A stretch of 64,000 nucleotides of DNA from an uncultured Gammaproteobacteria bacterium (GCA_964517685.1 CAZFCF010000003.1:47706-111705), one strand, 5' to 3'. Shown: positions 1,038 through 58,018, counted from the stretch's first letter. Translations and numbers: made by a program. Notes: generated by a model not told the origin, from the letters alone.

Positions 1038-1352
1038 ATGGAAATTAAGAGACTAAGTTTACAAGAAATAGAGATGGCCAAGCTAAATGGCACAAAGATT
1101 AACGCTGCGTTGGAAACTGCTAGTGGCAACAAAGAAATTGACCTTCAAGATTCTGCTGTTGCTATTGATAGCCAAAGTACAGAACAGTTTGAAGCCGTTA
1201 AAAAAACTGTTGCTGATGCCGTAAGACCTGGTGGTCCAGAATTAATTGAGAAAATAAAAGCTAGACTTGGTGATTTCGATAAACTTGATTCTAAAACCCT
1301 TGCAAATTCCATGTTTGAAGATGGATTCGATGAGAATTTCTTCAACAATTAA
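1038..1352 (+). CDS. flgM: putative anti-sigma-28 factor FlgM
   Basis: 104 aa. The C-terminal IEKIKARLGDFDKLDSKTLANSM resembles the conserved sigma-28-binding helix of FlgM (compare Salmonella [25 protein letters not shown]). Immediately followed by an flgN-like gene, as in flgMN operons. Confidence 0.45.
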   Translation: MEIKRLSLQEIEMAKLNGTKINAALETASGNKEIDLQDSAVAIDSQSTEQFEAVKKTVADAVRPGGPELIEKIKARLGDFDKLDSKTLANSMFEDGFDENFFNN

Positions 1353-1362
1353 AAGGTTATAA

Positions 1363-1833
1363 ATGAAATATTTAGTTGAATTACTTGAAAAAGAAACAGA
1401 CATTTATAGTAGCTATTTAGAACTTGCTGCACGTAAGAAAAAAGCTTTGATCGATAATGATATTGATAGATTAGATGCAATTACATCTGAAGAGAAGGCT
1501 TTATCAACTAAAATTTTGGCTTTAGAAGCCGCTCGTACTGAGTATCTTAGAGAAGAAGGTTTCTCTGGATCAATAACTCTAAATGAATTATTACCGAAAC
1601 TATCTCAGGATGATAGAACTCAAATTGAAGGTATCTCGGAAAATTTAAGAGTAGTTCTAACTAACTGTAAAAAATTCAATGACAATAACATAGCTCTTTT
1701 GAAACAATCATCAAGCTATATAAATCATATGATCAAAGTTTTTTCTTCAAATTTAAGTGGAGGAACAGCAGCAACATATTCTAGAGGAACTAATAAGTTC
1801 AGTTCAGGACAAATAGCTGATATGCAAGCTTAA
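1363..1833 (+). CDS. flgN: putative flagellar export chaperone FlgN
   Basis: 156 aa helical protein (LLEKETDIYSSYLELAARKKKALIDNDIDRLDAITSEEKAL...). Size, heptad pattern and position right after flgM fit FlgN. Confidence 0.4.
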   Translation: MKYLVELLEKETDIYSSYLELAARKKKALIDNDIDRLDAITSEEKALSTKILALEAARTEYLREEGFSGSITLNELLPKLSQDDRTQIEGISENLRVVLTNCKKFNDNNIALLKQSSSYINHMIKVFSSNLSGGTAATYSRGTNKFSSGQIADMQA

Positions 1834-1844
1834 GGGTAGTAATA

Positions 1845-2705
1845 ATGACAATAGTTTTTTTAATTCTAGTTTCAGTTTGTATTTTCGGTGGATTTGCCAT
1901 GGAGGGCGGTCCGCTCTTTGCGATTATTTCAGTTTGGCAAGAGTACATAATTATTTTCGGTGGAAGTACAGCAATTTTCCTTGCCATGATGCCTCCTAAA
2001 ATTTTGCAACACATTCTTATGAATCTTGGACATCCATTCAAAGGTGACCAATATTCTAAAGAGACTTTTACTGAAGCTTTAAAGCTAATGTACGAATCTT
2101 TTATCAACCTGAAACGTAGTGGCTTATTGAGTTTGGAGAAAGATGTTTCTAATCCTGCTGAAAGCACAATTTTTTCTAAATATCCAACTTTTGTAGGTAA
2201 TCATCACGCTTTAGATTTCTATTGTGATTCATTAAAGCTGGTTATTAACTACAACTCAAAACCTGAAGATGTAGAGCAAGCTATGAATGCAGAACTTGAT
2301 GCTCATCATCATGAGGCTGCTTTAACACCAGGCGCTGTAAATAGAATTGCAGATGCGATGCCTGCTGTAGGTATTATTGCTGCGGTACTTGGGGTAATTA
2401 TTGCGATGGCTCATATTGATGGACCTCCAGCAGAATTAGGTCACAAGGTATCTGCCGCGCTAACAGGTACGATGTTAGGTATTCTTGCAGCATATGGTTA
2501 TTACCAACCTATTGCTCAGCATATAGAATATATTTGCCAAGATGAATCTCAGTATTTTCAATGTCTTAAAGAGGGAGTTATTTCTTATTTAAGCGGTGCA
2601 GAACCAATGGCTGCAGTTGAGATTGCACGTAGGACTATTAGTAGTTTTAATAGACCTTCAAGCCAAGAGCTTGAGGAAGCTTTACAAGGCATTAAACCTC
2701 GCTGA
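1845..2705 (+). CDS. motA: flagellar motor stator protein MotA
   Basis: 286 aa with strong collinear similarity to E. coli MotA (FGGFAMEGG...; LSLEKDVSNPAESTIFSKYP...; LTPGAVNRIADAMPAVGIIAAVLGVIIAM...PPAELG...GTMLGILAAYG...PSSQELEE). Confidence 0.8.
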   Translation: MTIVFLILVSVCIFGGFAMEGGPLFAIISVWQEYIIIFGGSTAIFLAMMPPKILQHILMNLGHPFKGDQYSKETFTEALKLMYESFINLKRSGLLSLEKDVSNPAESTIFSKYPTFVGNHHALDFYCDSLKLVINYNSKPEDVEQAMNAELDAHHHEAALTPGAVNRIADAMPAVGIIAAVLGVIIAMAHIDGPPAELGHKVSAALTGTMLGILAAYGYYQPIAQHIEYICQDESQYFQCLKEGVISYLSGAEPMAAVEIARRTISSFNRPSSQELEEALQGIKPR

Positions 2706-2848
2706 TTTTTGAGTATTTATTCAATCGTTCGAACCCGCTCAGTAAGTAGGACTATAAGGTAGTAAATTTTACCTTATAGTCCTACTTACCTTGCTGTGCG
2801 TCGCTTCGCTTTGCAAAGTTCTCACTTGCTTGAATAAATACTCAAAAA
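2706..2848. repeat. nested palindromic element / bidirectional terminator between convergent motA and mscS
   Basis: Outer 19-bp inverted repeat tttttgagtatttattcaa (2706-2724) / ttgaataaatactcaaaaa (2830-2848). Inside it is a near-perfect 19-bp stem, gtaagtaggactataaggt (2742-2760) / accttatagtcctacttac (2771-2789). Confidence 0.6.
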
Positions 2849-2864
2849 TCCATCTGAAAAGGAA

Positions 2865-3908
2865 TTACTTCTTATTAGAACTAACATTCACCGTCTGCAT
2901 CGGAATCGCAAAGTGGATTCCAGCTTTCTCAAAATCTTCTTTAATACGTAGATTTAAGAGATTCTGTTTAGCCATGTATTCATTGTAATCACCAGAAGGA
3001 TAATAGAAAATTGTTTCATACATTAAACTTGAGATTCCAATTTCTTTAAGAGCAACATAGTCAACGCGAAGTTCCTCGAACGATTTAAGAATGTCTTTGA
3101 TCATATCGGGTATCATGCGGCACTGAGCAGCATTAGTCTCATGACTCACATGGATTAACCAACTAACTCTTCGTTCTTTCATTTTTTTGAAGTTTTGAAC
3201 ACGACCACTAGTTAATTCTTTATTTGGTATAACGATCTCCTCTCCCTGCAAAGCTTGAATACGAGTGGATTTCAGACCTATTTTATTTACCGTTCCCATA
3301 TGGTCACCGCTAATAATAAAATCTCCAACTCTAAATGGCTTATCACTATAAATTGAAAATGCACTGAACATATCGCCGAGTAAATTTTGTACGGCTAAAG
3401 CGATAGCAATACCACCAATCCCTAAACTGGCTACAAGTGAATTGACATTGACTCCCCAATTCGAAAGTACGAGTAATATGGCGATGATCCAAAGAACCAT
3501 GTTGATTAGTAACTTAGCTCCGTAGATTAAGGTGTAATCAGTTTTATCGCGTTTGCGACTTTGAATAGAACTTTCTAAGAGATAGTAAATAGTGCCTTGC
3601 AAAGCAGAAATGATTTGAAAAATTACTAATGTAACAAAAATCAAATTTAGAAACTTATGAAAAGTGGGCTCTAAATGAAGACTTTCGGTTGCTAGATAGA
3701 AAGCTACAAGCACATAGAAATAAGTTGGAATACGTGTTAAAGACTTAACTACAACATTGTCAAATTTGGCATGGCTTTGTTCAGACCAAGCATGTATCTT
3801 GGCTATAAAATATTTTCTGAATAACCAAAAGGCACAGTTATAAGCTAGAAACAAGAATAGTGCTATTGCATAAGCTTCAACATCGTTGCCCCAGAATTCA
3901 GTTTCCAT
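2865..3908 (-). CDS. small-conductance mechanosensitive channel (MscS family)
   Basis: TM helices followed by GIGGIAIALAVQNLLGDMFSAFSIYSDKPFRVGDFIISGDHMGTVNKIGLKSTRIQ, the MscS pore/beta domain signature. The ORF track extends to 4064, but that would overlap the divergent panE start. An internal Met near 3908-3926 is the likelier start. Confidence 0.7.
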   Translation of the reverse strand: METEFWGNDVEAYAIALFLFLAYNCAFWLFRKYFIAKIHAWSEQSHAKFDNVVVKSLTRIPTYFYVLVAFYLATESLHLEPTFHKFLNLIFVTLVIFQIISALQGTIYYLLESSIQSRKRDKTDYTLIYGAKLLINMVLWIIAILLVLSNWGVNVNSLVASLGIGGIAIALAVQNLLGDMFSAFSIYSDKPFRVGDFIISGDHMGTVNKIGLKSTRIQALQGEEIVIPNKELTSGRVQNFKKMKERRVSWLIHVSHETNAAQCRMIPDMIKDILKSFEELRVDYVALKEIGISSLMYETIFYYPSGDYNEYMAKQNLLNLRIKEDFEKAGIHFAIPMQTVNVSSNKK

Positions 3909-33912: not shown

Positions 33913-34207
33913 CGTAATATAGATTATATTTTGAAAATTAATCTTCTTTAATTCCATGGGTGGAACTTTTTCTAAAACTTTTCAATGGTTGATACAAAAG
34001 GAATTTCACACAATATGATATACGTCTTACTCATTCATACAAAAATCTTAATTTTAAAAACTTAGCTAAAACAGTTGACCGCCTACCTAAAATTTGAAAG
34101 TATTAATGCTGTATTCTAATACGCTGGGTCTTAGTCCCTTGACCAATAGTGTTAGGAAATTTTTTATGGAAAAAAATAGGGTGAAAAAAACAAACAAAGG
34201 AGAAACA

Positions 34208-37200
34208 ATGAGTCTAAGGAAACTACTTTCTTTACTCTTACTTACGGCGTTTACTATGACGTCGATCGCTCCTGCCCAGGCGGCAGTTACGCTTAATTCA
34301 GGCGTAGTGCTTCCAACCATAGCTCAAGACGACGGTACACGTGCCGACGGTGCAAACAGAGATGTTGTGCCTTTAGTTTTGAGAATTGGTTTCGTTGGCG
34401 GAGATCTTACATTTGCACCGGACGGTACTGCGTTCCAAGCGCTTGACTCTTTCACTGTTCAAAACAATGGAAGTTTATCAACAACTGGATTTACAGTTCC
34501 AGCTCCGAGAGTTGCAGTTTTCGTACCACCTACTGGTACTGAATTCGTTAAATTAGTAGCTAATAGCTATAGAGATTTAACTTCAACTATCACTATTGCA
34601 AATGGTACGTCAGGTTCAGCAACGATCAATGGAACAACTCTTTTGAACGTTACTGCTGATTCTGCTACTACAGCTAGTTTCCCTGGAACAGGCGCTGGTG
34701 CAGTTGTTGCTGCAGTAGTTCTTACTGAGGCTGCTGGCGATGCAACGTTTGGTATTGGTTCTAGCACTGAGTTCCCAGCTGGTAGCTTAGTTGTTCAGTT
34801 CTTTACTAAAACAGATGCACCTAACCAAATTACTACTGGTGCTGGTGGACTTATCGTTATTAACGGTATCGGTCTTGCTGCAGATCCTGGTACTAGCTTA
34901 GGTTCTACAGGTGATTTAAACATCACTTATAAAGCTCCTAATACAAGTGCTGTGGCTCTTGCTGCTTTCGGTAGCTCAGTTTTAGCTGATGATACAGCTA
35001 TTAAAGTTGCTACTAAAGCAGATAACATTGGTAAATTAGAGTTCTTACAAGTTGGTACTACTACTGGTACTGAAGTAAGCACTACTTCTGAGCCAGACAG
35101 TCAACCAAACACAATACTTGCTGGTTTAATTTCAGGTACTACAGTTACTGTTGGTCCTGGATTAATCACTTCAACTGGATCTAGCTTAGCTACTGCAAAT
35201 CTTGATACGGATACACTTCTTATCAGAGCAGCTGAAAGAGCTGAATCTACAACAAGTGCAAGAGCTTATTACGAAACTCCGTTCAATACTTCAGCTTTAG
35301 TTCTAAGCCAAGTATTTAATGGTAGAGAAGCTACAACAATTCGTGATTTGACACTTGATGGTAATACTACTAACTTCCCTAACGCTGCTAACGCTTTAAT
35401 CAAAGTAACTTTTGCATTAGAGACTCCAGCAGGTGCTGCTTCTACAGCTACTCTTGCAGTTAACGCTGTAACAGTATCTATGGTAAGTCCTAGAGCATTT
35501 AATGGTTTCAGAAACACTGGAGCTGCTACAGGTGGTCAAACTCAAGCTCTTGAGGGTGCATTGCCTGGCGTAAGAGGTTTCTCAGGAGGTTTAATTAACA
35601 CTCTTGATAACGCTCCTGCGACTTCTGGTGTGACTAAGCGTACATTATATGGAGTTCTTGCTCTTTACAATGGTACAGCTTCTGTAACACAATACCAAGC
35701 AAAAGACACATTCACTGCTGACTTCAGAGCTCAAGATACTCAAAGAGGTCTTACAGATGCAGTTGCTAACACTAATACTGTAGTTGCTGGTAACGATACA
35801 CCTAGTAGTACTGGTACTGCTGCTCCAAGTGCAGACAGAATCAGTATGTTCCCTGGATCTATGATCATCAATGCTGCTGCCGCTAACGGTGTTGCTGCGT
35901 GGGATCTTGTTAACACAGCAAATGGCTCTGGATCAACTCCATTCTCATTTGCATTAGCAAGTTCTAATGACACTTATGCAAACACTAATACTATTTGGAA
36001 TCCATCAGAAGTTTCTGTAAGGATGATAAATGGTACTGGAGGAGCTTCTATTGGTAATACCGCGTATTTCTTAATTCACGGTACTAATGGAGCTGACGTA
36101 GGTGTTACTGTTGATAACTTCAGAGTTGCTTCAACTAACGTGAACGCTTCAACTGAGTTCTACGATAATGGAGTTACTTTGAAAGATGCAAACAATACTG
36201 TTGATGCACGTAATAACGTGTTAATGGCAGCTAAACTCAAAGCAAATGTTCTTGAGATTATGCCTGTATCTAATAAGTTTGATGGCTTAAGAGATGTACT
36301 TGCTCTCAGACCTGAAGCTACTATTACTCTTGATGCTACATCTAAGACTACTGGTGTGAACCTTGTAGCTACTGCTACTGGTAACAACCTTCCAACAGCT
36401 GGAGTGAAGCTAACTATAGCTAAAATCCTTCCTACTGGTGGTTTCACAGCTGGTCTAGATCTAACGTCATCGGCTCTTCCTGTTCATGGAACAATTGGTA
36501 CTCCAGCATTAATGAGCGAAAGTTCAACTGATGCAGGAGCTAGCAGATCTGCTATCCAATTGAGTAGCGTAACAGGTGCTACTACTTCTACTGATAATCT
36601 TTCAGATATCGTAGGAACTGGTAAGTCACTTGATACTACATTACCTCCATTATTCTGTGGTGGTACTGCTGGTACAGCTACTAGAGGTCCTAATGGTGTT
36701 GTATTCCAACCTAAGGCTCGTGCAATTCTGTTAACTGAAAACGGTACTACTAATTTCCAAGCAATTGAAGATTTAGGTGCTAACACAGTAATCAGAGTTA
36801 CTCTTCCTACAGGATGGGATCTAAACAAATATACAGCTACTAACGGTAACTTCCTTGCAACTGGAGTTTCTGGTGGTTTAACTGCGACTGTTATTAGAAC
36901 GCAAGACATCACTAGTACGGTCTCTAGAGCATTCATTGATATTACTGTTGATAGTAGTGCAACTACTGTAAGCACTAAGAGATTACTTGGTCTGTTCTTC
37001 AAGCCTAATGCGCTTGTAGTTCCAGAAGGAGTAACTAGCTTTACTGCTGATGTAGCGATTTACAATACAGCTGGTACCGCGGCAACTACTGATGATACTC
37101 TTGTGGGTACTATCGGTACAGTTAGCTTAGGTTCTGCATGTTCTACATTGTTAACAGTTTCATTCTGCGATAGCTCAATTTCATCTTTCGTAGCTTCTGG

Positions 37201-38899
37201 TTCTACAACTCAGACTACAGAAAATGGAAGAGTTGCTACAAGCGGATCTCAATTAACTGAATTTGGTGGATCACCATCTTCAATTCAGAGACTTGTTAAC
37301 TCATCTGCAAGTAACGAAGTAATCCTTCCAGACCTATGTGTGGAAGAGGGTGTGGCTGATGCATTACCAGTTGGTTCTATAACTGACGGTGTGCCAAGCA
37401 TATTCGGTGAATCTGCTTCTTCTACTGTAGGTGATGTTGAATTACACATTTCAACTAGCTTTGCTGGAAGTACTGCTACAGGTGAAGTTGGTCTAGATAC
37501 AGCTGCAACAGCAGTTCTATTCTCAGACACATCTATCATTGCTGACGGTGCATCAAGTGTAGTTACTACTGGTGATGATAATGAAGTAATCGTTCCTTTA
37601 CAGGAAGGTACTGCTTCAGGAAGAAAGAGACCATTCTTGGAAAAAACTCAAATCAGAATTACTGGTTTAAGACTTGACCAAGCTGCGGCTTCTCAACCAG
37701 TATCAGCACAAGACATATTAGTTTGGGCTGAAGTTGCGACAGGTACTGGTTCAGTAGCTGTTGGTAGCAATGCTGTAATTAGTAATGAAGAAACAAATAC
37801 TACAACTCATGAGTTCTTTGCTGGTAACGTATTTAGCTCTGGTAACGAAGATGAGAAATATTCAAACTCATTCTCTGACAAAGTGATAGATACTACTACA
37901 GGAACTGTAGTTGCTACTAGCTTCGGTGATAACAGTGCTACTGTTGCAACTAACACATTACAAGTTGCTCAGTCACTAGGTAATCACGGTACATTGAGTG
38001 GTGCTGTTGAGTCATTACTTGACAATTCAGGATACACATTACTTGATGAAGATACTACTTTCAGCGTTCAACTAAGTGATATCACTGGTTCTACAGACAA
38101 GAAAGCTACTATATCTGTTAATCCAGGATCATTAGAGCCAGGAACACTTGTTACTTTAACGTCAAGTGGTTCAGGTAATAGCGATTCAGTAACAGTTCCA
38201 GTACTTGATGATGGTAGTTTCATCGGTTCGATCAGAGCTAACACAAGTCAAACGATTGTGGTAACTCAAGGTCCTACTTCAACTCAAACTGGTGCTCTTC
38301 AATTAAGAGAATTAGATGTAGTTGAACAAAACGTTGAGCCTGTAATCACAGGAGCTGTAGCTGAGAATATTGGAATCGGTATCCTTACTAGAAGAGGAAC
38401 TGCGCCAGTAGTATTCACGGTAACTGCTAAAGGTAAATTGAATGGAGTTGACTTTACGCCAACTGCTAGCCAATTGACTTTAGGTGGTTCAAGCGTAATT
38501 GCTGTAACAGGTACTGATGATAAATTCATCGGTATTGCTGACTTCAGCAAATCAACGGCCTTGACTGTTAAAGCAACAGCTAATGGTGAGGAAAGTACAG
38601 CTACACTTACTGAGTTAGCTGTGTCTAATCCAACACTTAGTGGTGGTCCAGTTCTTAAGAAAGTTAAAGTCAACAAAAAAGGAAGAATTGCTCTTTCTGG
38701 TTTGAGACTACGTAACGGCGGAACATTCGGATTCGTATTAAGTGATGGTACTTACGTGCCAGTTGACCTAAAAGCTCAAACTGCTAACCAGAAGAAAACA
38801 GGTAAGAGAACTTCTGCTGTAGAAGCTACTATTCCAGCTACTGCAGTATTAGGTGTCTTCCATGTTCCTGGACGTGGTACTAGTACAATCGAACTATAA
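34208..38899 (+). CDS. giant secreted Thr/Ser/Ala/Gly-rich surface protein (1563 aa); candidate S-layer or surface-array protein
   Basis: Strong RBS aaggag 8 nt before the ATG at 34208. Signal peptide MSLRKLLSLLLLTAFTMTSIAPAQA. Only 6 Cys in about 1560 aa. Biased, highly-expressed-gene-like codon usage. Ends at a strong bidirectional terminator shared with flagellin. Confidence 0.6.
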   Translation: MSLRKLLSLLLLTAFTMTSIAPAQAAVTLNSGVVLPTIAQDDGTRADGANRDVVPLVLRIGFVGGDLTFAPDGTAFQALDSFTVQNNGSLSTTGFTVPAPRVAVFVPPTGTEFVKLVANSYRDLTSTITIANGTSGSATINGTTLLNVTADSATTASFPGTGAGAVVAAVVLTEAAGDATFGIGSSTEFPAGSLVVQFFTKTDAPNQITTGAGGLIVINGIGLAADPGTSLGSTGDLNITYKAPNTSAVALAAFGSSVLADDTAIKVATKADNIGKLEFLQVGTTTGTEVSTTSEPDSQPNTILAGLISGTTVTVGPGLITSTGSSLATANLDTDTLLIRAAERAESTTSARAYYETPFNTSALVLSQVFNGREATTIRDLTLDGNTTNFPNAANALIKVTFALETPAGAASTATLAVNAVTVSMVSPRAFNGFRNTGAATGGQTQALEGALPGVRGFSGGLINTLDNAPATSGVTKRTLYGVLALYNGTASVTQYQAKDTFTADFRAQDTQRGLTDAVANTNTVVAGNDTPSSTGTAAPSADRISMFPGSMIINAAAANGVAAWDLVNTANGSGSTPFSFALASSNDTYANTNTIWNPSEVSVRMINGTGGASIGNTAYFLIHGTNGADVGVTVDNFRVASTNVNASTEFYDNGVTLKDANNTVDARNNVLMAAKLKANVLEIMPVSNKFDGLRDVLALRPEATITLDATSKTTGVNLVATATGNNLPTAGVKLTIAKILPTGGFTAGLDLTSSALPVHGTIGTPALMSESSTDAGASRSAIQLSSVTGATTSTDNLSDIVGTGKSLDTTLPPLFCGGTAGTATRGPNGVVFQPKARAILLTENGTTNFQAIEDLGANTVIRVTLPTGWDLNKYTATNGNFLATGVSGGLTATVIRTQDITSTVSRAFIDITVDSSATTVSTKRLLGLFFKPNALVVPEGVTSFTADVAIYNTAGTAATTDDTLVGTIGTVSLGSACSTLLTVSFCDSSISSFVASGSTTQTTENGRVATSGSQLTEFGGSPSSIQRLVNSSASNEVILPDLCVEEGVADALPVGSITDGVPSIFGESASSTVGDVELHISTSFAGSTATGEVGLDTAATAVLFSDTSIIADGASSVVTTGDDNEVIVPLQEGTASGRKRPFLEKTQIRITGLRLDQAAASQPVSAQDILVWAEVATGTGSVAVGSNAVISNEETNTTTHEFFAGNVFSSGNEDEKYSNSFSDKVIDTTTGTVVATSFGDNSATVATNTLQVAQSLGNHGTLSGAVESLLDNSGYTLLDEDTTFSVQLSDITGSTDKKATISVNPGSLEPGTLVTLTSSGSGNSDSVTVPVLDDGSFIGSIRANTSQTIVVTQGPTSTQTGALQLRELDVVEQNVEPVITGAVAENIGIGILTRRGTAPVVFTVTAKGKLNGVDFTPTASQLTLGGSSVIAVTGTDDKFIGIADFSKSTALTVKATANGEESTATLTELAVSNPTLSGGPVLKKVKVNKKGRIALSGLRLRNGGTFGFVLSDGTYVPVDLKAQTANQKKTGKRTSAVEATIPATAVLGVFHVPGRGTSTIEL

Positions 38900-38927
38900 A
38901 TCTATAGATCGATAATATACAAATAAC

Positions 38928-38958
38928 TAAAAGGGAGCTTTCGGGCTCCCTTTTTTTT
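38928..38958. terminator. bidirectional rho-independent terminator
   Basis: aaaagggagctttcgggctcccttttttttg: an A-tract, a 7-bp GC stem, then a T-tract. It serves both the + strand surface-protein gene and the - strand flagellin gene. Confidence 0.8.
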
Positions 38959-38990
38959 GTATTAAATCTCTTTCGAAATCGTAAATTGTT

Positions 38991-39938
38991 CTAACCTTTA
39001 ATAAGCTGTAGTGCTATTTGTGGAGTTGCATTCGCTTGAGAGAGCATCGCTGCGGCAGTTTGCTGCAGGATTTGGTTCTTGACTAAGATACTACTTTCTT
39101 GAGCAACGTCAACATCTTGGATACGCGATCTAGATGCTTCGGCGTTTTCTTTAGCAATGTCCATGTAGTCAGTTTTTGACTCCAGTGCATTTTGAGTAGC
39201 TCCTAGGTAAGATCTCATTCTAGAGATATTGTCGATAAGAGTATCAATATCACCAACCGAAGCGGCAACGTTAGTTGTGTGAGTAGCATAGTTAAGTGAA
39301 TTAACATTTGCACCACTAATTTGCAATCTATCTAAGGCAAAACCCGTAGTAGTGCCTTCAATGATGTGACCGTAATCAGTTGTACCGCCATCTGCCACTT
39401 CACTGATATCGATGTCGATACCATTGTTAGCTGCATACTCAGAACGTAGACTCAAAACAGTGGTCTGACTTGCATCAGCACCGGTTTGTAGAGTTAAGTC
39501 TGCAGATGAGGAATTGTTACTGCTAAGCAAGTTGATACCATTGAATTTTGTTGATCCAGAAATATCATTGATAACTTTAACTCGCTCGTTAATCTCTCTT
39601 TGTAGAGCGTCTTTCTCGTTAGTGCCGTTAGTTCCGTTGACACCTTGTACAACAAGTTCTCTAATTCTCTGTAAATTTTCTTGTATAACTTGCAAACCAC
39701 CTTCTGATGTTTGAATGAGTGAAATACCATCAGCGGCATTTTGTTTAGCTTTGTCAAGACCGCGAATAGTTGTTGTAAGCTTGTTTGCGATACTTAAGCC
39801 GGCTGCATCATCTGCTGCTCTGTTGATTCTGTAACCTGTAGATAAATGTTCGATATTTCTCTCAAGTCCCATAGTATTCATTCTTAATGCCCTTTGGGCG
39901 AAGATACTTTGTGTGTTTGTGTTTACTACTAATGCCAT
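38991..39938 (-). CDS. fliC: flagellin (copy 1)
   Basis: N-terminus MALVVNTNTQSIFAQRALRMNTMGLERNIEHLSTGYRINRAADDAAGLSIANKL and C-terminus QNQILQQTAAAMLSQANATPQIALQLI are canonical flagellin D0/D1 segments. Confidence 0.9.
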   Translation of the reverse strand: MALVVNTNTQSIFAQRALRMNTMGLERNIEHLSTGYRINRAADDAAGLSIANKLTTTIRGLDKAKQNAADGISLIQTSEGGLQVIQENLQRIRELVVQGVNGTNGTNEKDALQREINERVKVINDISGSTKFNGINLLSSNNSSSADLTLQTGADASQTTVLSLRSEYAANNGIDIDISEVADGGTTDYGHIIEGTTTGFALDRLQISGANVNSLNYATHTTNVAASVGDIDTLIDNISRMRSYLGATQNALESKTDYMDIAKENAEASRSRIQDVDVAQESSILVKNQILQQTAAAMLSQANATPQIALQLIKG

Positions 39939-40149
39939 AATTGTTTCCTGCTTAAAATATCGGAACTTTGCAGGCTAGCACAGTTAACCATTGAGACTAT
40001 TTGTTGGAGCCTAACCTCAGGAAATCTAGGCACAGTGAGCTAATTTAGTGTGCAGGACTAATCTAAAAAGACTATAGGCATGAGAATTTCATTGAAATCT
40101 CGATTGTTTAATCAGATTTTAATTTGATTTATTTACTATAACTCTAGCT

Positions 40150-40761
40150 ATGGTAAACATTTCGCCAACAGCCAAATCAAATATATCTAGGTTTCAATCT
40201 GCAGAGGCCCCGGCGGCATCTAATATTAGCTTAGCTGCTGCTAATAATCATGGAGCTAGAGTTAGCAATTTAATCGGTGGTGGTGCTGCAACTGGCTCTA
40301 CAGGCGGTTTAAACAATCCATCAGGTTCTTCACAAACCAAAAGCTCCAAGAGTTTTGCTCAACTCATTGATATGAGTCATTATACTGATACTTACAAAGA
40401 TTATACGGACAAGTCAAAGGAAGCAGAAAATGTTTTAAAAACATATGAATCTAAAGTAGCTACTGGTGATGCTCCTGATAATCCATCTCAATTTCATTCT
40501 TCATATTCAGAAATTCTTTCATTAAATACTTTAGAAGAGTTTTATAAACAAGAAACATTATTCTGGAAATCAGAACAGAGTTTTACTAGTGCCAATCCTG
40601 ATAAATTAACTAAGGGTAGAGCAGACTCCTATAGAAATCTCCAAGATTTAGAAAGCCGTTATGAAGAAGCTTTGATTGCAGGCAATACTATTAAAGCTGC
40701 AGATCTAAAAGGTGATATTAACGCAGCGAAACACAATCTCCAAGCGTCACAGACGGCTTAA
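40150..40761 (+). CDS. hypothetical protein within the flagellin locus (203 aa)
   Basis: ORF only. Ser/Gly/Ala-rich N-terminus, helical C-terminus. The stop overlaps the flagellin copy 2 stop by 4 bp (convergent). Confidence 0.35.
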   Translation: MVNISPTAKSNISRFQSAEAPAASNISLAAANNHGARVSNLIGGGAATGSTGGLNNPSGSSQTKSSKSFAQLIDMSHYTDTYKDYTDKSKEAENVLKTYESKVATGDAPDNPSQFHSSYSEILSLNTLEEFYKQETLFWKSEQSFTSANPDKLTKGRADSYRNLQDLESRYEEALIAGNTIKAADLKGDINAAKHNLQASQTA

Positions 40762-41693
40762 TTTGGTAATAGCGACAAGACTATTTGTGGAGTAGTATTT
40801 GCTTGAGTAAGCATGGCGGCAGCGGTTTGTTGCAAAATTTGGTTCTTCACTAGAATACTACTTTCACGGGCGACATCTACATCTTTAATTCTAGATCTAG
40901 AACTTTCAGAATTTTCACGAGCAATGTCAATAAAATTTACTTTTGATTCGAGAGCATTTTGTGAGGCACCAAGATACGATCTCATTCTGGAAATATTGTC
41001 TATCATTGCATCTAAATCATTAGCTGAAACAGCAACATTCGTTGTATGTGTAGCATAATTAAGCGAATTAACATTTGAACCATTTATGTATAAACGATCT
41101 AGAGCAAAGCCAATTGAAGTGCCTTCAATTAAGTGACCATAGTCAGTTGTACCACCATCTGCAACTTCGCTTATATCAATGTCAATCCCGATCTGGGATT
41201 GAACTCCAGATTCAAATTTAATTTCTGAATTTTGTCCATTTACAGTTCCAGTTTGTAAGATTCGATCTGTAGTCCCTGCAAGCAAACTAATTCCATTAAA
41301 TTGAGTTGCTTGAGATATATCAGAAATAATTTTAATCCTTTCGTTTATTTCTCTTTGTAGAGCACCTTTTTCGTTAGAGCTATAAGTGCCGCTTGTACCT
41401 TGGATAACCAATTCCCTGATTCTTTGTAAGTTTTCTTGGATTACTTCTAAGCCACCCTCAGCTGTCTGTAGCATTGAAACACCGTCGCCAGCGTTCTGCA
41501 TAGCTTTCTCTAAGCCTTTTAATTCAGTAGTTATTTTATTACTGATACTTAAACCTGCCGCATCATCGGCAGCTCTATTTATTCTAAAACCTGTAGACAA
41601 ATGTTCGATATTTGCCTTTAAACCATCGGTGTTAACTCTCAGTGCTCTTTGAGCAAAAAGACTTTGAGTATTGGTGTTGATTGATAATCCCAC
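40758..41693 (-). CDS. fliC: flagellin (copy 2, divergent paralog)
   Basis: MGLSINTNTQSLFAQRALRVNTDGLKANIEHLSTGFRINRAADDAAGLSISNKI...LTQANTTPQIVLSLL. Conserved termini with a diverged central domain. Confidence 0.9.
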   Translation of the reverse strand: MGLSINTNTQSLFAQRALRVNTDGLKANIEHLSTGFRINRAADDAAGLSISNKITTELKGLEKAMQNAGDGVSMLQTAEGGLEVIQENLQRIRELVIQGTSGTYSSNEKGALQREINERIKIISDISQATQFNGISLLAGTTDRILQTGTVNGQNSEIKFESGVQSQIGIDIDISEVADGGTTDYGHLIEGTSIGFALDRLYINGSNVNSLNYATHTTNVAVSANDLDAMIDNISRMRSYLGASQNALESKVNFIDIARENSESSRSRIKDVDVARESSILVKNQILQQTAAAMLTQANTTPQIVLSLLPN

Positions 41694-41823
41694 TCATCTA
41701 CTATTCACCCGAGGGACTAAGATCTAAATCAGCCCCCAGACTGATTTTCATGGTTAAATGCAGTTAATTAGTCTCAAAGTCCTAGATTAAAAGGACTGTT
41801 TTATTTATTTTGAAAATTCTAAT

Positions 41824-41856
41824 ACAAAAAATAGAGAGCCCCGTAAGGGGCTCTCT
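41824..41856 (-). terminator. rho-independent terminator for flagellin copy 3
   Basis: agagagccccgtaaggggctctct is a perfect 10-bp stem, followed on the minus strand by a T-run. Confidence 0.75.
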
Positions 41857-41936
41857 AAGTGGGGTGGGGAGGGAATCGTCAGTTTCTACCCTTTTTATCA
41901 ACTATGCTAGGCATAGTTAAAATCTATAAGTCGAAT

Positions 41937-42887
41937 TTAGCCGCCTTTAATAAGCTGTAGTGCTATTTGTGGGGTTGCGTTCGCTTGCGAGAGCATCGCT
42001 GCGGCAGTTTGCTGCAGGATTTGGTTCTTGACTAAGATGCTACTTTCTTGAGCAACGTCAACATCTTGGATACGCGATCTAGATGCTTCGGCGTTTTCTT
42101 TAGCAATGTCCATGTAGTCAGTTTTTGACTCCAGTGCATTTTGAGTAGCTCCTAGGTAAGATCTCATTCTAGAGATATTGTCGATAAGAGTATCAATATC
42201 ACCAACCGAAGCGGCAACGTTAGTTGTGTGAGTAGCATAGTTAAGTGAATTAACATTTGCACCACTAATTTGCAATCTATCTAAGGCAAAACCCGTAGTA
42301 GTGCCTTCAATGATGTGACCGTAATCAGTTGTACCGCCATCTGCCACTTCACTGATATCGATGTCGATACCATTGTTAGCTGCATACTCAGAACGTAGAC
42401 TCAAAACAGTGGTCTGACTTGCATCAGCACCGGTTTGTAGAGTTAAGTCTGCAGATGAGGAATTGTTACTGCTAAGCAAGTTGATACCATTGAATTTTGT
42501 TGATCCAGAAATATCATTGATAACTTTAACTCGCTCGTTAATCTCTCTTTGTAGAGCGTCTTTCTCGTTAGTGCCGTTAGTTCCGTTGACACCTTGTACA
42601 ACAAGTTCTCTAATTCTCTGTAAATTTTCTTGTATAACTTGCAAACCACCTTCTGATGTTTGAATGAGTGAAATACCATCAGCGGCATTTTGTTTAGCTT
42701 TGTCAAGACCGCGAATAGTTGTTGTAAGCTTGTTTGCGATACTTAAGCCGGCTGCATCATCTGCTGCTCTGTTGATTCTGTAACCTGTAGATAAATGTTC
42801 GATATTTCTCTCAAGTCCCATAGTATTCATTCTTAATGCCCTTTGGGCGAAGATACTTTGTGTGTTTGTGTTTACTACTAATGCCAT
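41937..42887 (-). CDS. fliC: flagellin (copy 3, near-identical to copy 1)
   Basis: Coding sequence essentially identical to 38991-39938 over about 950 bp, with a few substitutions at the 3' end. Flanking DNA is unrelated. Confidence 0.9.
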   Translation of the reverse strand: MALVVNTNTQSIFAQRALRMNTMGLERNIEHLSTGYRINRAADDAAGLSIANKLTTTIRGLDKAKQNAADGISLIQTSEGGLQVIQENLQRIRELVVQGVNGTNGTNEKDALQREINERVKVINDISGSTKFNGINLLSSNNSSSADLTLQTGADASQTTVLSLRSEYAANNGIDIDISEVADGGTTDYGHIIEGTTTGFALDRLQISGANVNSLNYATHTTNVAASVGDIDTLIDNISRMRSYLGATQNALESKTDYMDIAKENAEASRSRIQDVDVAQESSILVKNQILQQTAAAMLSQANATPQIALQLIKGG

Positions 42888-43025
42888 GATTTCTATCCTC
42901 TCGTTTATCCCCGTAGTGGTGATTTATTACTGACATTTTGATTTATCGGAATCGCCATGGAGATCTAAGTCGGTCGAATACCTTAATTTTTTCTTCAAAT
43001 AGTACATGAGTACTAGTACTAATAG

Positions 43026-45128: not shown

Positions 45129-46112
45129 TTAAATAAACTGATACTTCGTCTGATTTTTATCTCCGTGTTTTTTGACTAATTTGAGTTTGCAAGCTTCAAG
45201 AAGATCTCTGCTGGCTGTAGCGCTGGAAATAGATTTTTGAATTTCGCTGTATTCTTTGCGGCTGAACTCTTTATTGCCCAAAGCTTGTTTTGCATATTGG
45301 ATTCTGTCTTGAAAGCTAATTTCTGGAATTTTATATTCTTTAGAATATTCATCTAAAGTTTTTTTGATGATGTTTAACATGAATTCAATAAATAAACTTG
45401 AATCACCTGCTTTATCGCAATTGCCAAGCACTTTATAATATTCTTTTTGCTCGGCTTTGATGAGAGATTCGATAGGCAGATATTCAAAGATTGGATTGGA
45501 TTCTGCAAGCATCAGGCTTTGCCAAAAACGTCCAAGGCGCCCATTGCCATCACTGAAAGGATGTATAAATTCAAATTCATAATGAAAGACTGAACTTTTT
45601 ATCAAAATGTGATCATCACTATGTTTGAGATAATGAAATAAATCGCCCATGAGCTTCGGCAGCATTTTTGGTTGTGGACCAATATGAGTAACTTGTTTGC
45701 CTTTAAAGATGCCGACATTTTTAAGACGATATTTGCCAGCATCAGGGATTAAATTCTGCATCATTAATTGATGAGCTTTGAGTAAAGATTTCTCTGAACT
45801 ACTCTTTAATTGCGGCATGTACTCATATGCTTTAATAGCATTTTGAATTTCTAATATTTCTTGTTGCGGTCCAAGAATTTTTTTGCCATCAATGATTGCA
45901 GAAACTTGATCGAGATCTAGACTATTCCCTTCGATTGAGAGATTGGCTTGAATAGACCTTGCTCTATTTTTACGTCTTAGTTCAATATTAGGCTTTGCAT
46001 TATTTGGTAAAAATCCACTTAATTGCCCGAGCAGATTTTCAATCTGTCCTATCAGCTTAATCATATTGGAACTGATGGTATAAGGGGGTTTCATACTTAT
46101 AATTATACCCAA
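45129..46112 (-). CDS. Fic-family protein (AMPylation-type motif present)
   Basis: Canonical Fic motif HPFSDGNGRLGR. An upstream LSIEGNSL segment resembles the intramolecular inhibitory helix. 327 aa. Confidence 0.75.
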   Translation of the reverse strand: MGIIISMKPPYTISSNMIKLIGQIENLLGQLSGFLPNNAKPNIELRRKNRARSIQANLSIEGNSLDLDQVSAIIDGKKILGPQQEILEIQNAIKAYEYMPQLKSSSEKSLLKAHQLMMQNLIPDAGKYRLKNVGIFKGKQVTHIGPQPKMLPKLMGDLFHYLKHSDDHILIKSSVFHYEFEFIHPFSDGNGRLGRFWQSLMLAESNPIFEYLPIESLIKAEQKEYYKVLGNCDKAGDSSLFIEFMLNIIKKTLDEYSKEYKIPEISFQDRIQYAKQALGNKEFSRKEYSEIQKSISSATASRDLLEACKLKLVKKHGDKNQTKYQFI

Positions 46113-56983: not shown

Positions 56984-58018
56984 ATGGGTAAAAGTCAAAG
57001 CTCTATAAGAAGTTGGACCAAGCGAATGAAAGTCGCTGCAATGCTCGTGCTTATGGATCAAGAAGCAGCTGCAGGTGTGCTTAGAAGTTTTGATGATGAT
57101 CACGAAGTAATTGCTCTTGCAAAAGAGATTTCAATGGTTAGTACTGTTAGTGAAGCTGATCAAGAAATTTTATTAAATGAGATGTATGATGCACTACAAA
57201 TACAAAAAGGTGTTGCTAGTGGAAGTTTAGATTTAGCTGAGAACATGTTGGTGCAAGCTTATGGTCATGAGGGTGCTAATGACATTATCGACAAGATGAC
57301 GAACACTATTCAAAGGGTACCTTTTGAGTTCTTGCGTATCGTAGATCCTGAGCAGATAGCAAACACTATCCAACATGAACATCCACAAGTTATAACATTG
57401 CTTTTATCACATTTGAAAATTGAAAAAGCTGCAAGTGTTTTGCAAAATCTTCCTGAAGGTGTTAGATCAGACATTGCTATAAGGCTTGCAAAAATGGATA
57501 GAACGAATCCAGAAATTCTTTCTGTGGTTGAAAGAATTTTGGAAAGAAGATTTGCTGGGATTATGTCTCAGAACGAAATTCAGAATACTGTTGGTGGTAT
57601 CGAATCACTTGCAGAAATCCTCAACCGTGTTGATAGAAATACTGAGAAGAGAATTCTTGAAGATCTGGAAACTATTGACCAAGCGCTTGCTACAGATATT
57701 CGTAACTTGATGTTCGTATTTGAAGACATTATTAGATTGGATGATAAATCTATTCAGAGATTGCTTCGTGATGTTGATTCTAGAGATCTTGGACTTGCTC
57801 TGAAAGGTGCTCCTGAAGATATTCGTGTGGCATTCTTTAGAAATATGTCTGAGAAAGCATCTAAGCTTATGCAAGATGATATCGAGATGATGGGTCCAGT
57901 ATTGATGAAGGATGTATCAGAAGTACAAACCAAAATTGTTGGTATTGTTAGATCACTTGAACAAGCTGGTGAGATCATTATTCTTGGTAATAGTGATGAA
58001 GACATGTTCATTGAATAA
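56984..58018 (+). CDS. fliG: flagellar motor switch protein FliG
   Basis: The C-terminal torque helix region (IRNLMFVFEDIIRLDDKSIQRLLRDVDSRDLGLALKGA...) is the FliG signature. 344 aa. Confidence 0.8.
   Translation: MGKSQSSIRSWTKRMKVAAMLVLMDQEAAAGVLRSFDDDHEVIALAKEISMVSTVSEADQEILLNEMYDALQIQKGVASGSLDLAENMLVQAYGHEGANDIIDKMTNTIQRVPFEFLRIVDPEQIANTIQHEHPQVITLLLSHLKIEKAASVLQNLPEGVRSDIAIRLAKMDRTNPEILSVVERILERRFAGIMSQNEIQNTVGGIESLAEILNRVDRNTEKRILEDLETIDQALATDIRNLMFVFEDIIRLDDKSIQRLLRDVDSRDLGLALKGAPEDIRVAFFRNMSEKASKLMQDDIEMMGPVLMKDVSEVQTKIVGIVRSLEQAGEIIILGNSDEDMFIE

Follow-up and report, generated by a model that had tools for sequence, protein, structure and literature searches.

The flagellin array described here lies in a 64-kb stretch of DNA (CAZFCF010000003.1:47706-111705), the whole of which is referred to as the window, and contains three intact flagellin genes, numbered copy 1 to copy 3 by coordinate, together with an open reading frame (ORF) on the opposite strand that is called ORFx (ORF203; Table 1). 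Copies 1 and 3 are near-identical within their coding sequences (CDSs), and the locus is probably best understood as an array of slots whose CDSs have been homogenised by recurrent gene conversion. One flank of the array has RuvA and a 1601-aa protein and the opposite flank has enolase, KdsB and a Fic protein, and the stops of ORFx and copy 2 overlap tail to tail by 4 nt. The letters A, B, C and D denote flagellin types assigned from a neighbour-joining tree within the close relatives.

An earlier annotation made from the DNA alone (the sequence-only reading) had given exactly the same coordinates for the four ORFs, and Pfam supports the identity of the flagellins, with all three genes scoring 128 bits against Flagellin_N (PF00669; gathering cut-off 26.6) and 74-75 bits against Flagellin_C (PF00700; gathering cut-off 23). 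Their top NCBIfam matches are flagellin models at 207-215 bits, yet under the equivalog cut-offs, and the FlgL model TIGR02550 reaches 75-84 bits, under its cut-off of 127. On these scores the three genes are best read as filament flagellins rather than as the hook-filament junction protein FlgL. No fourth flagellin or flagellin fragment was found in the window by tblastn. Purifying selection acts on all genes of the array, the ratio of non-synonymous to synonymous substitution rates (dN/dS) being 0.047 for copy 1 against its L026 ortholog and 0.049 for copy 2 against L027, the latter denoting strong purifying selection, and 0.11-0.12 for ORFx among homologs 72-86% identical.

Table 1. Positions of the flagellin array, its putative signals and other genes in the window
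Feature	Position	Strand	Remarks
Flagellin copy 1 (type A)	38991-39938	minus	315 aa; slot 3, between ORFx and the putative 1601-aa surface protein
ORFx	40150-40761	plus	203 aa; divergent from copy 1, convergent with copy 2
Flagellin copy 2 (type B)	40758-41693	minus	311 aa, GTG start; an old paralog kept clade-wide
Flagellin copy 3 (type A)	41937-42887	minus	316 aa; slot 1, adjoins enolase; likely conversion donor
115-nt patch	39246-39360 (copy 1); 42195-42309 (copy 3)	minus	11 differences from contig L022, parallel in the two copies; assembly comparison
Sigma-28-like -10 box TCCGATAT	39957-39964	minus	18 nt upstream of copy 1 ATG; short leader, AGGA Shine-Dalgarno
Sigma-28-like -10 box TCCGATAA	42943-42950	minus	55 nt upstream of copy 3 ATG
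TGTCAG motif	42930-42935		in the copy 3 leader
Start region of ORFx	40100-40152		counterpart at copy 2, 41694-41710
C-rich element ACTGACGATTCCCTCCCCACCCCAC of the 3′ untranslated region (3′UTR)	41859-41883	minus	between a hairpin (41900-41918) and the copy 3 terminator
Intrinsic terminator of copy 3	41832-41857	minus	11-bp stem then T run; stem covaries in relatives
Bidirectional terminator	38929-38954	both	serves copy 1 and the convergent 1601-aa gene
1601-aa gene	34094-38899	plus	Thr/Ser/Ala/Gly-rich
104-aa ORF	1038-1352		directly upstream of flgN
FlgN	1363-1833		Pfam match
MotA	1845-2705		Pfam match
Fic-domain gene	45129-46112	minus	between kdsB and a PNP_UDP_1 phosphorylase gene
FliG	56984-58018		Pfam match

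Identity within and between the flagellin genes

Over nt 1-848 of the CDS there is no difference at all between copies 1 and 3 (39091-39938 = 42040-42887). The substitutions lie at nt 849, 900, 909 and 915 and all four are synonymous, while the 3′ ends read GGT TAG in copy 1 and GGC GGC TAA in copy 3. Every difference thus falls within the last 100 nt, an arrangement with a probability of ~1e-4 to 1e-5 under a uniform spread. The flanks of the two genes are unrelated from position -1 upstream and from immediately after the stop codon. In keeping with this the sequence-only reading had described two near-identical flagellin CDSs with a few changes at the 3′ end, set in unrelated flanks. The tract 39091-39938 may be taken as the most recent conversion tract. 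Copy 1 and its slot-3 ortholog in L026, the closest relative and ~11-15% diverged from the window at the nucleotide level, differ with a synonymous divergence (dS) of 0.55, against the absence of any difference from copy 3 over nt 1-848.

The wider flagellin family was compared in four segments (aa 1-135, 136-175, 176-245 and 246-315) through segment trees and identities. Pairs of different types from the same genome gave identities, in the order of the segments, of 90%, 39%, 46% and 97% (L029 E1/E3), 90%, 52%, 49% and 97% (L032 Eb/Ea) and 92%, 36%, 36% and 94% (L001 E1/E2). Same-type orthologs from different genomes were 78-91% identical over aa 136-175, 70-86% over aa 176-245 and 80-91% over aa 246-315. 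Within a genome, different types have C-termini that are 93-97% identical around centres that are 36-52% identical, whereas orthologs in different genomes have centres (aa 136-245) that are 70-91% identical and C-termini at 80-91%, so that over the C-termini paralogs are closer than orthologs. Likewise, in the segment trees termini fall together with others of the same genome, and centres with others of the same type. This pattern indicates clade-wide concerted evolution restricted to the ends that encode D0/D1, with the window appearing as the extreme case in which the tract extends over the whole gene.

Copy 2 departs from this pattern. Its identity to copy 1 is 73% over aa 1-135, 30% over aa 136-175, 83% over aa 176-245 and 76% over aa 246-315, such that the view of copy 2 as a gene whose termini are conserved and whose central domain differs is right only for aa 136-175, and ~40 aa is all that truly sets the two apart. 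In the window, aa 176-245 have 83% identity to type A, against just 58% to the type-B gene of L031. From these identities type B appears largely exempt from homogenisation but mosaic in the window lineage, and the mosaic segment points to an older partial conversion of A into B.

Slots and flagellin types among relatives

Six further syntenic loci were recovered. A scan of genome contigs yielded a single close locus, L001, its other matches being distant flagellins of ~35% identity, and an exact look-up of the copy 1 protein in a contig index gave no match, although a protein collection contains its sequence. Type A comprises window copies 1 and 3, the slot-3 genes of L026 and L033, L029_E1, L031_E3 and L032_Eb, and type B comprises window copy 2, L027, L030 and L031_E2. 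Written from enolase towards the large protein, with x for ORFx, the window array is A-B-x-A, that of its nearest complete relative L029 is A-B-x-C, that of L031 is C-B-x-A-D and that of L032 is C-A-D. The array of L025 reads ?-B-x-(none), and L001 lacks ORFx and has four genes, all of its own clade. Further contigs, of 573,663, 198,401, 185,938 and 599,768 nt, have 3-4 flagellins each.

The position between ORFx and the large protein, slot 3, is informative in these comparisons. In L029 it holds a type-C gene, the centre of which is 44-46% identical to that of window copy 1, and L029 carries its type-A gene in the slot on the enolase side, with an upstream region related to that of window copy 3. 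The promoter region of slot 3 is common to the window and L026, which argues that the CDS was replaced rather than the locus. As such the slot beside ORFx is old and its content has changed, a type-A gene now occupying it in the window lineage and in the relatives closest to that lineage. The claim in the sequence-only reading that conversion is confined to the coding region is accordingly supported by the different type that L029 has in this slot and by the promoter region common to L026, together with the grouping of termini by genome and centres by type.

A second instance of sharing between slots is seen in the sister lineage, where the slot-1 gene of L027 and the slot-3 gene of L026 end in the same 30 nt, among them lineage-specific bases unlike those of the window. 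Together with the identity of the window copies this requires at least two conversion events, one of them recent. In L025, whose ORFx is 72% identical, the slot of copy 1 is missing as a whole, ~1.15 kb of promoter, CDS and 3′ flank being absent (L025 5590-5712 compared with window 38900-40150). The missing stretch would lie between the terminator of the large-protein gene and the ORFx promoter, and the empty slot implies that flagellin slots are lost as well as overwritten. In L032 the adjacent genes Eb (type A) and Ec (type D) have 5′ leaders that are near-identical between the TCCGATAG box and the start codon (1348-1856 compared with 2802-3046), suggesting that in other genomes homogenisation can reach into the 5′UTR.

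Expression signals, ORFx and neighbouring genes

The sigma-28-type -10 elements proposed in the sequence-only reading for copies 1 and 3 are present, being the only two matches to TCCGATA on the minus strand of the window, and the box is conserved in relatives, but the -35 element is not clear. It is found in the slots orthologous to copy 1 in L026 and L029, and TCCGATA precedes 13 of the 14 flagellins of types A, C and D and of the L001 clade in relatives, the fourteenth having TACGATA. No TCCGATA was found upstream of the type-B genes, copy 2 included. The box resembles the -10 consensus of sigma-28, GCCGATAA, or of Bacillus sigma-D, CCGATAT, and the -35 consensus of sigma-28 is TAAA, lying ~15 nt upstream of the -10. 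Some relatives carry a GGCCACATT box at the -35 position instead. The TGTCAG motif in the leader of copy 3 is kept by slot in relatives, whatever the type of flagellin that follows.

The region upstream of copy 2 is also conserved but is a different one, and no clear Shine-Dalgarno sequence precedes the GTG start of this gene. A sigma-54 promoter was considered for this gene and rejected, the GG/GC spacing not being conserved among the window, L027 and L030. An AT-rich box resembling a -10 element stands ~7-10 nt before the starts of both ORFx and copy 2, neither of which has an obvious Shine-Dalgarno sequence, and the ORFx start region, TACTATAAC-N7-ATG, is conserved in L025. These sequences hint that the transcripts of ORFx and copy 2 may be leaderless or have very short leaders. 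There is no terminator between the two convergent genes.

The C-rich 3′UTR element, GGGT..ACTGACGATTCCCTCCCCACCCCAC, sits downstream of the flagellin gene placed before that of type B. It is found also at L027 1983-1996, L029/L030 1259-1272 and L031 8033-8046, and in L035/L037 upstream of a 312-aa flagellin, with a core that is identical even between lineages in which ORFx is only ~30% identical. In the window it occurs once, against 0.01 occurrences expected by chance. Its C-rich sequence is anti-Shine-Dalgarno-like (ACUGAC..UCCCUCCCCACCCC). A search of Rfam with 38.7-43.2 kb gave sub-threshold matches on the terminators only and no match to the element.

ORFx, listed in the sequence-only reading as an uncharacterised gene on the strand opposite the flagellins, is a real gene by virtue of purifying selection and its homologs. 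Iterated searches of 5.8 billion sequences plus 1.8 billion representatives recovered a family of only 11-12 members. An all-against-all HMMER search contributed just two true relatives along with two repeat-protein false positives, and the ORFx profile had no match in the metagenome contigs. Wherever the contig is long enough, members always lie tail to tail with a flagellin (type B where typed) and head to head with the next flagellin. No match to ORFx was found in Pfam, NCBIfam (even with E up to 10), PHROGs or PDB sequence profiles. On this evidence ORFx appears to be an orphan, clade-restricted new family embedded in flagellin arrays. The possibility that ORFx is what remains, in antisense, of a fourth flagellin that had decayed was rejected, given the lack of flagellin similarity in tblastn and blastn searches and the purifying selection on the gene.

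The small all-helical export chaperones FliS, FliT and FlgN are encoded near filament genes. ORFx is similar in that a helical-bundle domain of ~140 residues is predicted and the gene lies inside a flagellin array. A first AF2 model, from 5 sequences, was too poor, with a predicted local distance difference test score (pLDDT) of 52. A second, built on 11 sequences, has a mean pLDDT of 72, with residues 61-203 of high confidence and predicted helices at 75-104, 112-148, 155-177 and 180-202. Unlike FliS, FliT and FlgN, ORFx has a 60-residue N-terminal extension that is predicted to be disordered, and it has no sequence match or specific structural match. Fold searches were non-specific, with no specific match to a solved family member, and alignment with hhalign gave a probability of 0.1% against both the FlgN of the window and its candidate FlgM. 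The comparison with the FlaG, FliS and FliW families that had been suggested for this protein, extended to FlgN and FlgM, therefore gave no match by hidden Markov model or by fold. The fixed position of ORFx suggests a flagellin-related role, and at a guess it might be a flagellin-specific regulator, chaperone or export substrate.

The 1601-aa protein beyond slot 3 has an N-terminal signal-like sequence and no match in Pfam or NCBIfam. In all relatives with a contig that extends to that flank, an ortholog of 1514-1593 aa lies by the flagellin array and adjoins RuvA. The protein may be located at the cell surface, for instance in an S-layer. Beyond enolase, at the position of the Fic-domain gene, L031 has an unrelated 243-aa gene with no Pfam match, making this a variable spot beside a conserved block. 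Other flagellar genes of the window are listed in Table 1; the 104-aa ORF has no Pfam match but occupies the usual position of FlgM and has a C-terminal motif that looks FlgM-like, which makes it a candidate FlgM.

Probable gene conversion and its alternatives

The best explanation of the locus, with a probability of about 0.8, is a slot array subject to recurrent gene conversion, with replacement of a whole CDS in the window lineage. The expression slots would be fixed, in the order enolase, slot 1, slot 2, ORFx (opposite strand), slot 3, large surface protein and RuvA, and the CDSs that occupy them would be homogenised repeatedly by non-reciprocal homologous recombination (gene conversion) anchored in the conserved regions encoding the N- and C-terminal D0/D1 domains. 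In most relatives homogenisation is limited to the termini, and the central domain in each slot remains of its own type, whether A, B, C or D. In the window lineage a conversion that probably proceeded from slot 1 (type A, copy 3) would have covered the whole CDS of slot 3 and displaced a different type, later events keeping copies 1 and 3 identical. The outcome would be one flagellin expressed from two different promoters and leaders, putatively of sigma-28 type, plus a distinct and differently controlled type-B flagellin (copy 2), and these may co-assemble in one filament.

The existence of both copies, over which the sequence-only reading had raised the prospect of an assembly artefact, is supported by several assemblies. 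L022, an independent ENA metagenome contig of 109 kb, has the same gene order as the window. The Logan unitig L023, from four SRA runs, maps without mismatch to window 39909-42018, with one end 30 nt inside copy 1 and the other 30 nt past the final position at which copies 3 and 1 can be told apart; these are the breakpoints that a k=31 graph gives at a true repeat and both copies must therefore exist. Contig L026 spans the type-A flagellin of slot 3 and continues on either side into unique sequence, and contig L033 runs from the flank on the ORFx side through the type-A gene of slot 3. The two-copy structure is not an artefact, though perfect identity of the interiors lies beyond the reach of short-read assemblies.

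It is on this last point that the strongest rival turns, namely that both copies exist but differ in their interiors, the consensus of a collapsed repeat (patch variant a or b, for example) having been written twice. Over 12.6 kb only 23 sites separate the window from L022, every one of them inside the two type-A copies, with zero differences over about 10.7 kb of unique sequence. The 11 changes of the 115-nt patch are identical at equivalent positions of both copies, and one further site is at 42039. Three of the 11 are non-synonymous (N211S, A218D and G229S), and no donor for the patch was found among the available alleles, each variant sharing some sites with L026, L033 or L029 and having unique sites besides. 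The patch fits equally well with two strains, each homogenised for its own variant, and with one genome whose copies differ in the patch and were collapsed differently by two assemblers. It is also conceivable, though rather improbable, that the patch records an exposed part of the flagellin diversifying quickly and then being copied to the second gene. In further agreement with inflated identity, the contig name of L022 is SPAdes-style with a k-mer coverage of ~7, and the Logan unitigs break at the repeat borders, leaving the interior linked to neither flank. Whether two strains or one collapsed genome lie behind the patch, however, the identity of copies 1 and 3 is 98.8% or more, and the dS of 0.55 to the slot ortholog would still call for conversion. 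Moreover, site 849 of copy 3 differs between the window and L022 and lies within 51 nt of a copy-specific site (one 55-nt k-mer), so that it is phased to that site and some of the variation between the assemblies is real population variation. Inflated identity is accordingly a possible, if doubtful, account of the interiors.

Several points weigh against recurrent conversion as set out above. All of the assemblies are short-read, and a single repeat node walked twice would make the copies identical by construction; the parallel patch of the window and L022 is as compatible with collapsed differing copies as with homogenised strains. As to expression, no TAAA -35 element was found at the expected spacing at the putative sigma-28 promoters of the window, and fliA was not located among the window ORFs scanned. 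Finally, the closest named flagellin homologs, at 71-73% identity, are labelled Candidatus Melainabacteria, Caenarcaniphilales or Cyanobacteriota, and it is from these names alone that the organism can be placed, with probability, in the Melainabacteria (Vampirovibrionia).

It is very unlikely that the locus arose by a recent segmental duplication, with copy 1 a young duplicate of copy 3 inserted beside ORFx and no conversion. Such an origin would account for the near-identity of the two copies, and L025, with no flagellin between the large protein and ORFx, demonstrates that the slot can be empty. The identity begins at the ATG and stops before the stop codon, however, with no duplicated promoter, leader or terminator, and slot 3 has its own promoter region in common with L026. 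In addition, despite the ~11-15% divergence of L026, window copy 1 matches copy 3 and not its L026 ortholog, and a flagellin occupies that slot in the more distant L029, L031 and L001 too. Programmed antigenic or phase variation, in which a cassette system would switch flagellins between expression sites and which the sequence-only reading had entertained as recombinational antigenic switching, is also very unlikely: types A and C are swapped between the slots of L029 and L031 and the clustered 11-SNP (single-nucleotide polymorphism) patch, which alters 3 amino acids, varies between two assemblies that are identical elsewhere, but there are no promoter-less or truncated silent cassettes (all copies being full-length with a start codon, and copies 1 and 3 having a box and terminator), no invertible segment or repeats flanking a promoter and no site-specific recombinase or invertase among the neighbouring genes scanned, and the slot changes separate lineages whose proteins have diverged by 15-30% rather than members of one population.

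Recurrent gene conversion among slots has clear parallels. Concerted evolution of the neighbouring Campylobacter genes flaA and flaB is reported by Meinersmann and Hiett (2000) and by Alm, Guerry and Trust (1993), both as cited in PMC8535712. The window resembles flaA/flaB in that full-length genes in one array, each with its own promoter, are near-identical in the CDS only, as would follow from intragenomic recombination. It differs in that the arrays hold three to five or more genes with several central-domain types, in that homogenisation would normally affect the termini only, with whole-gene replacement just in the window lineage, and in that both identical copies have sigma-28-like boxes, where Campylobacter has one flagellin gene under sigma-28 control and the other under sigma-54, and an extra conserved gene, ORFx, lies inside the array. 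Long-lasting, recurrent concerted evolution has likewise been found for the fla genes of Alteromonadales (PMC6053082), where within-genome paralogs are also closer than between-genome orthologs, recurrently across the clade; that case concerns a different phylum, and here the pattern is resolved by segment (termini and centre) and by chromosomal slot. Conversion is therefore known in flagellin families, and what is new here is the lineage, the multi-type array with a slot-resolved history and the whole-gene replacement.

Melainabacteria are non-photosynthetic, flagellated relatives of cyanobacteria with more than one flagellin gene per genome, according to passages of two papers (PMC3787301; PMC7018530), and those passages do not describe array structure, conversion, the ORFx family or the promoter boxes. 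It is tempting, though rather improbable, to see ORFx and the C-rich element as two undescribed regulatory parts peculiar to this group within the Melainabacteria, with ORFx acting as a flagellin-specific chaperone, anti-regulator or export substrate and the element as a 3′UTR-derived small RNA or a cis element for translation. The ORFx family and the conserved 3′UTR element are nevertheless concrete new candidates for flagellin regulation.

The locus also carries a warning, as such repeats break short-read assemblies and assemblers may write them as falsely identical. More broadly, it offers a slot-resolved view of how a multi-flagellin array evolves in an uncultured and little-studied flagellated lineage, in which the termini would be continually homogenised while the central types persist, and in which an occasional overwrite of a whole gene would cost the cell a filament variant.

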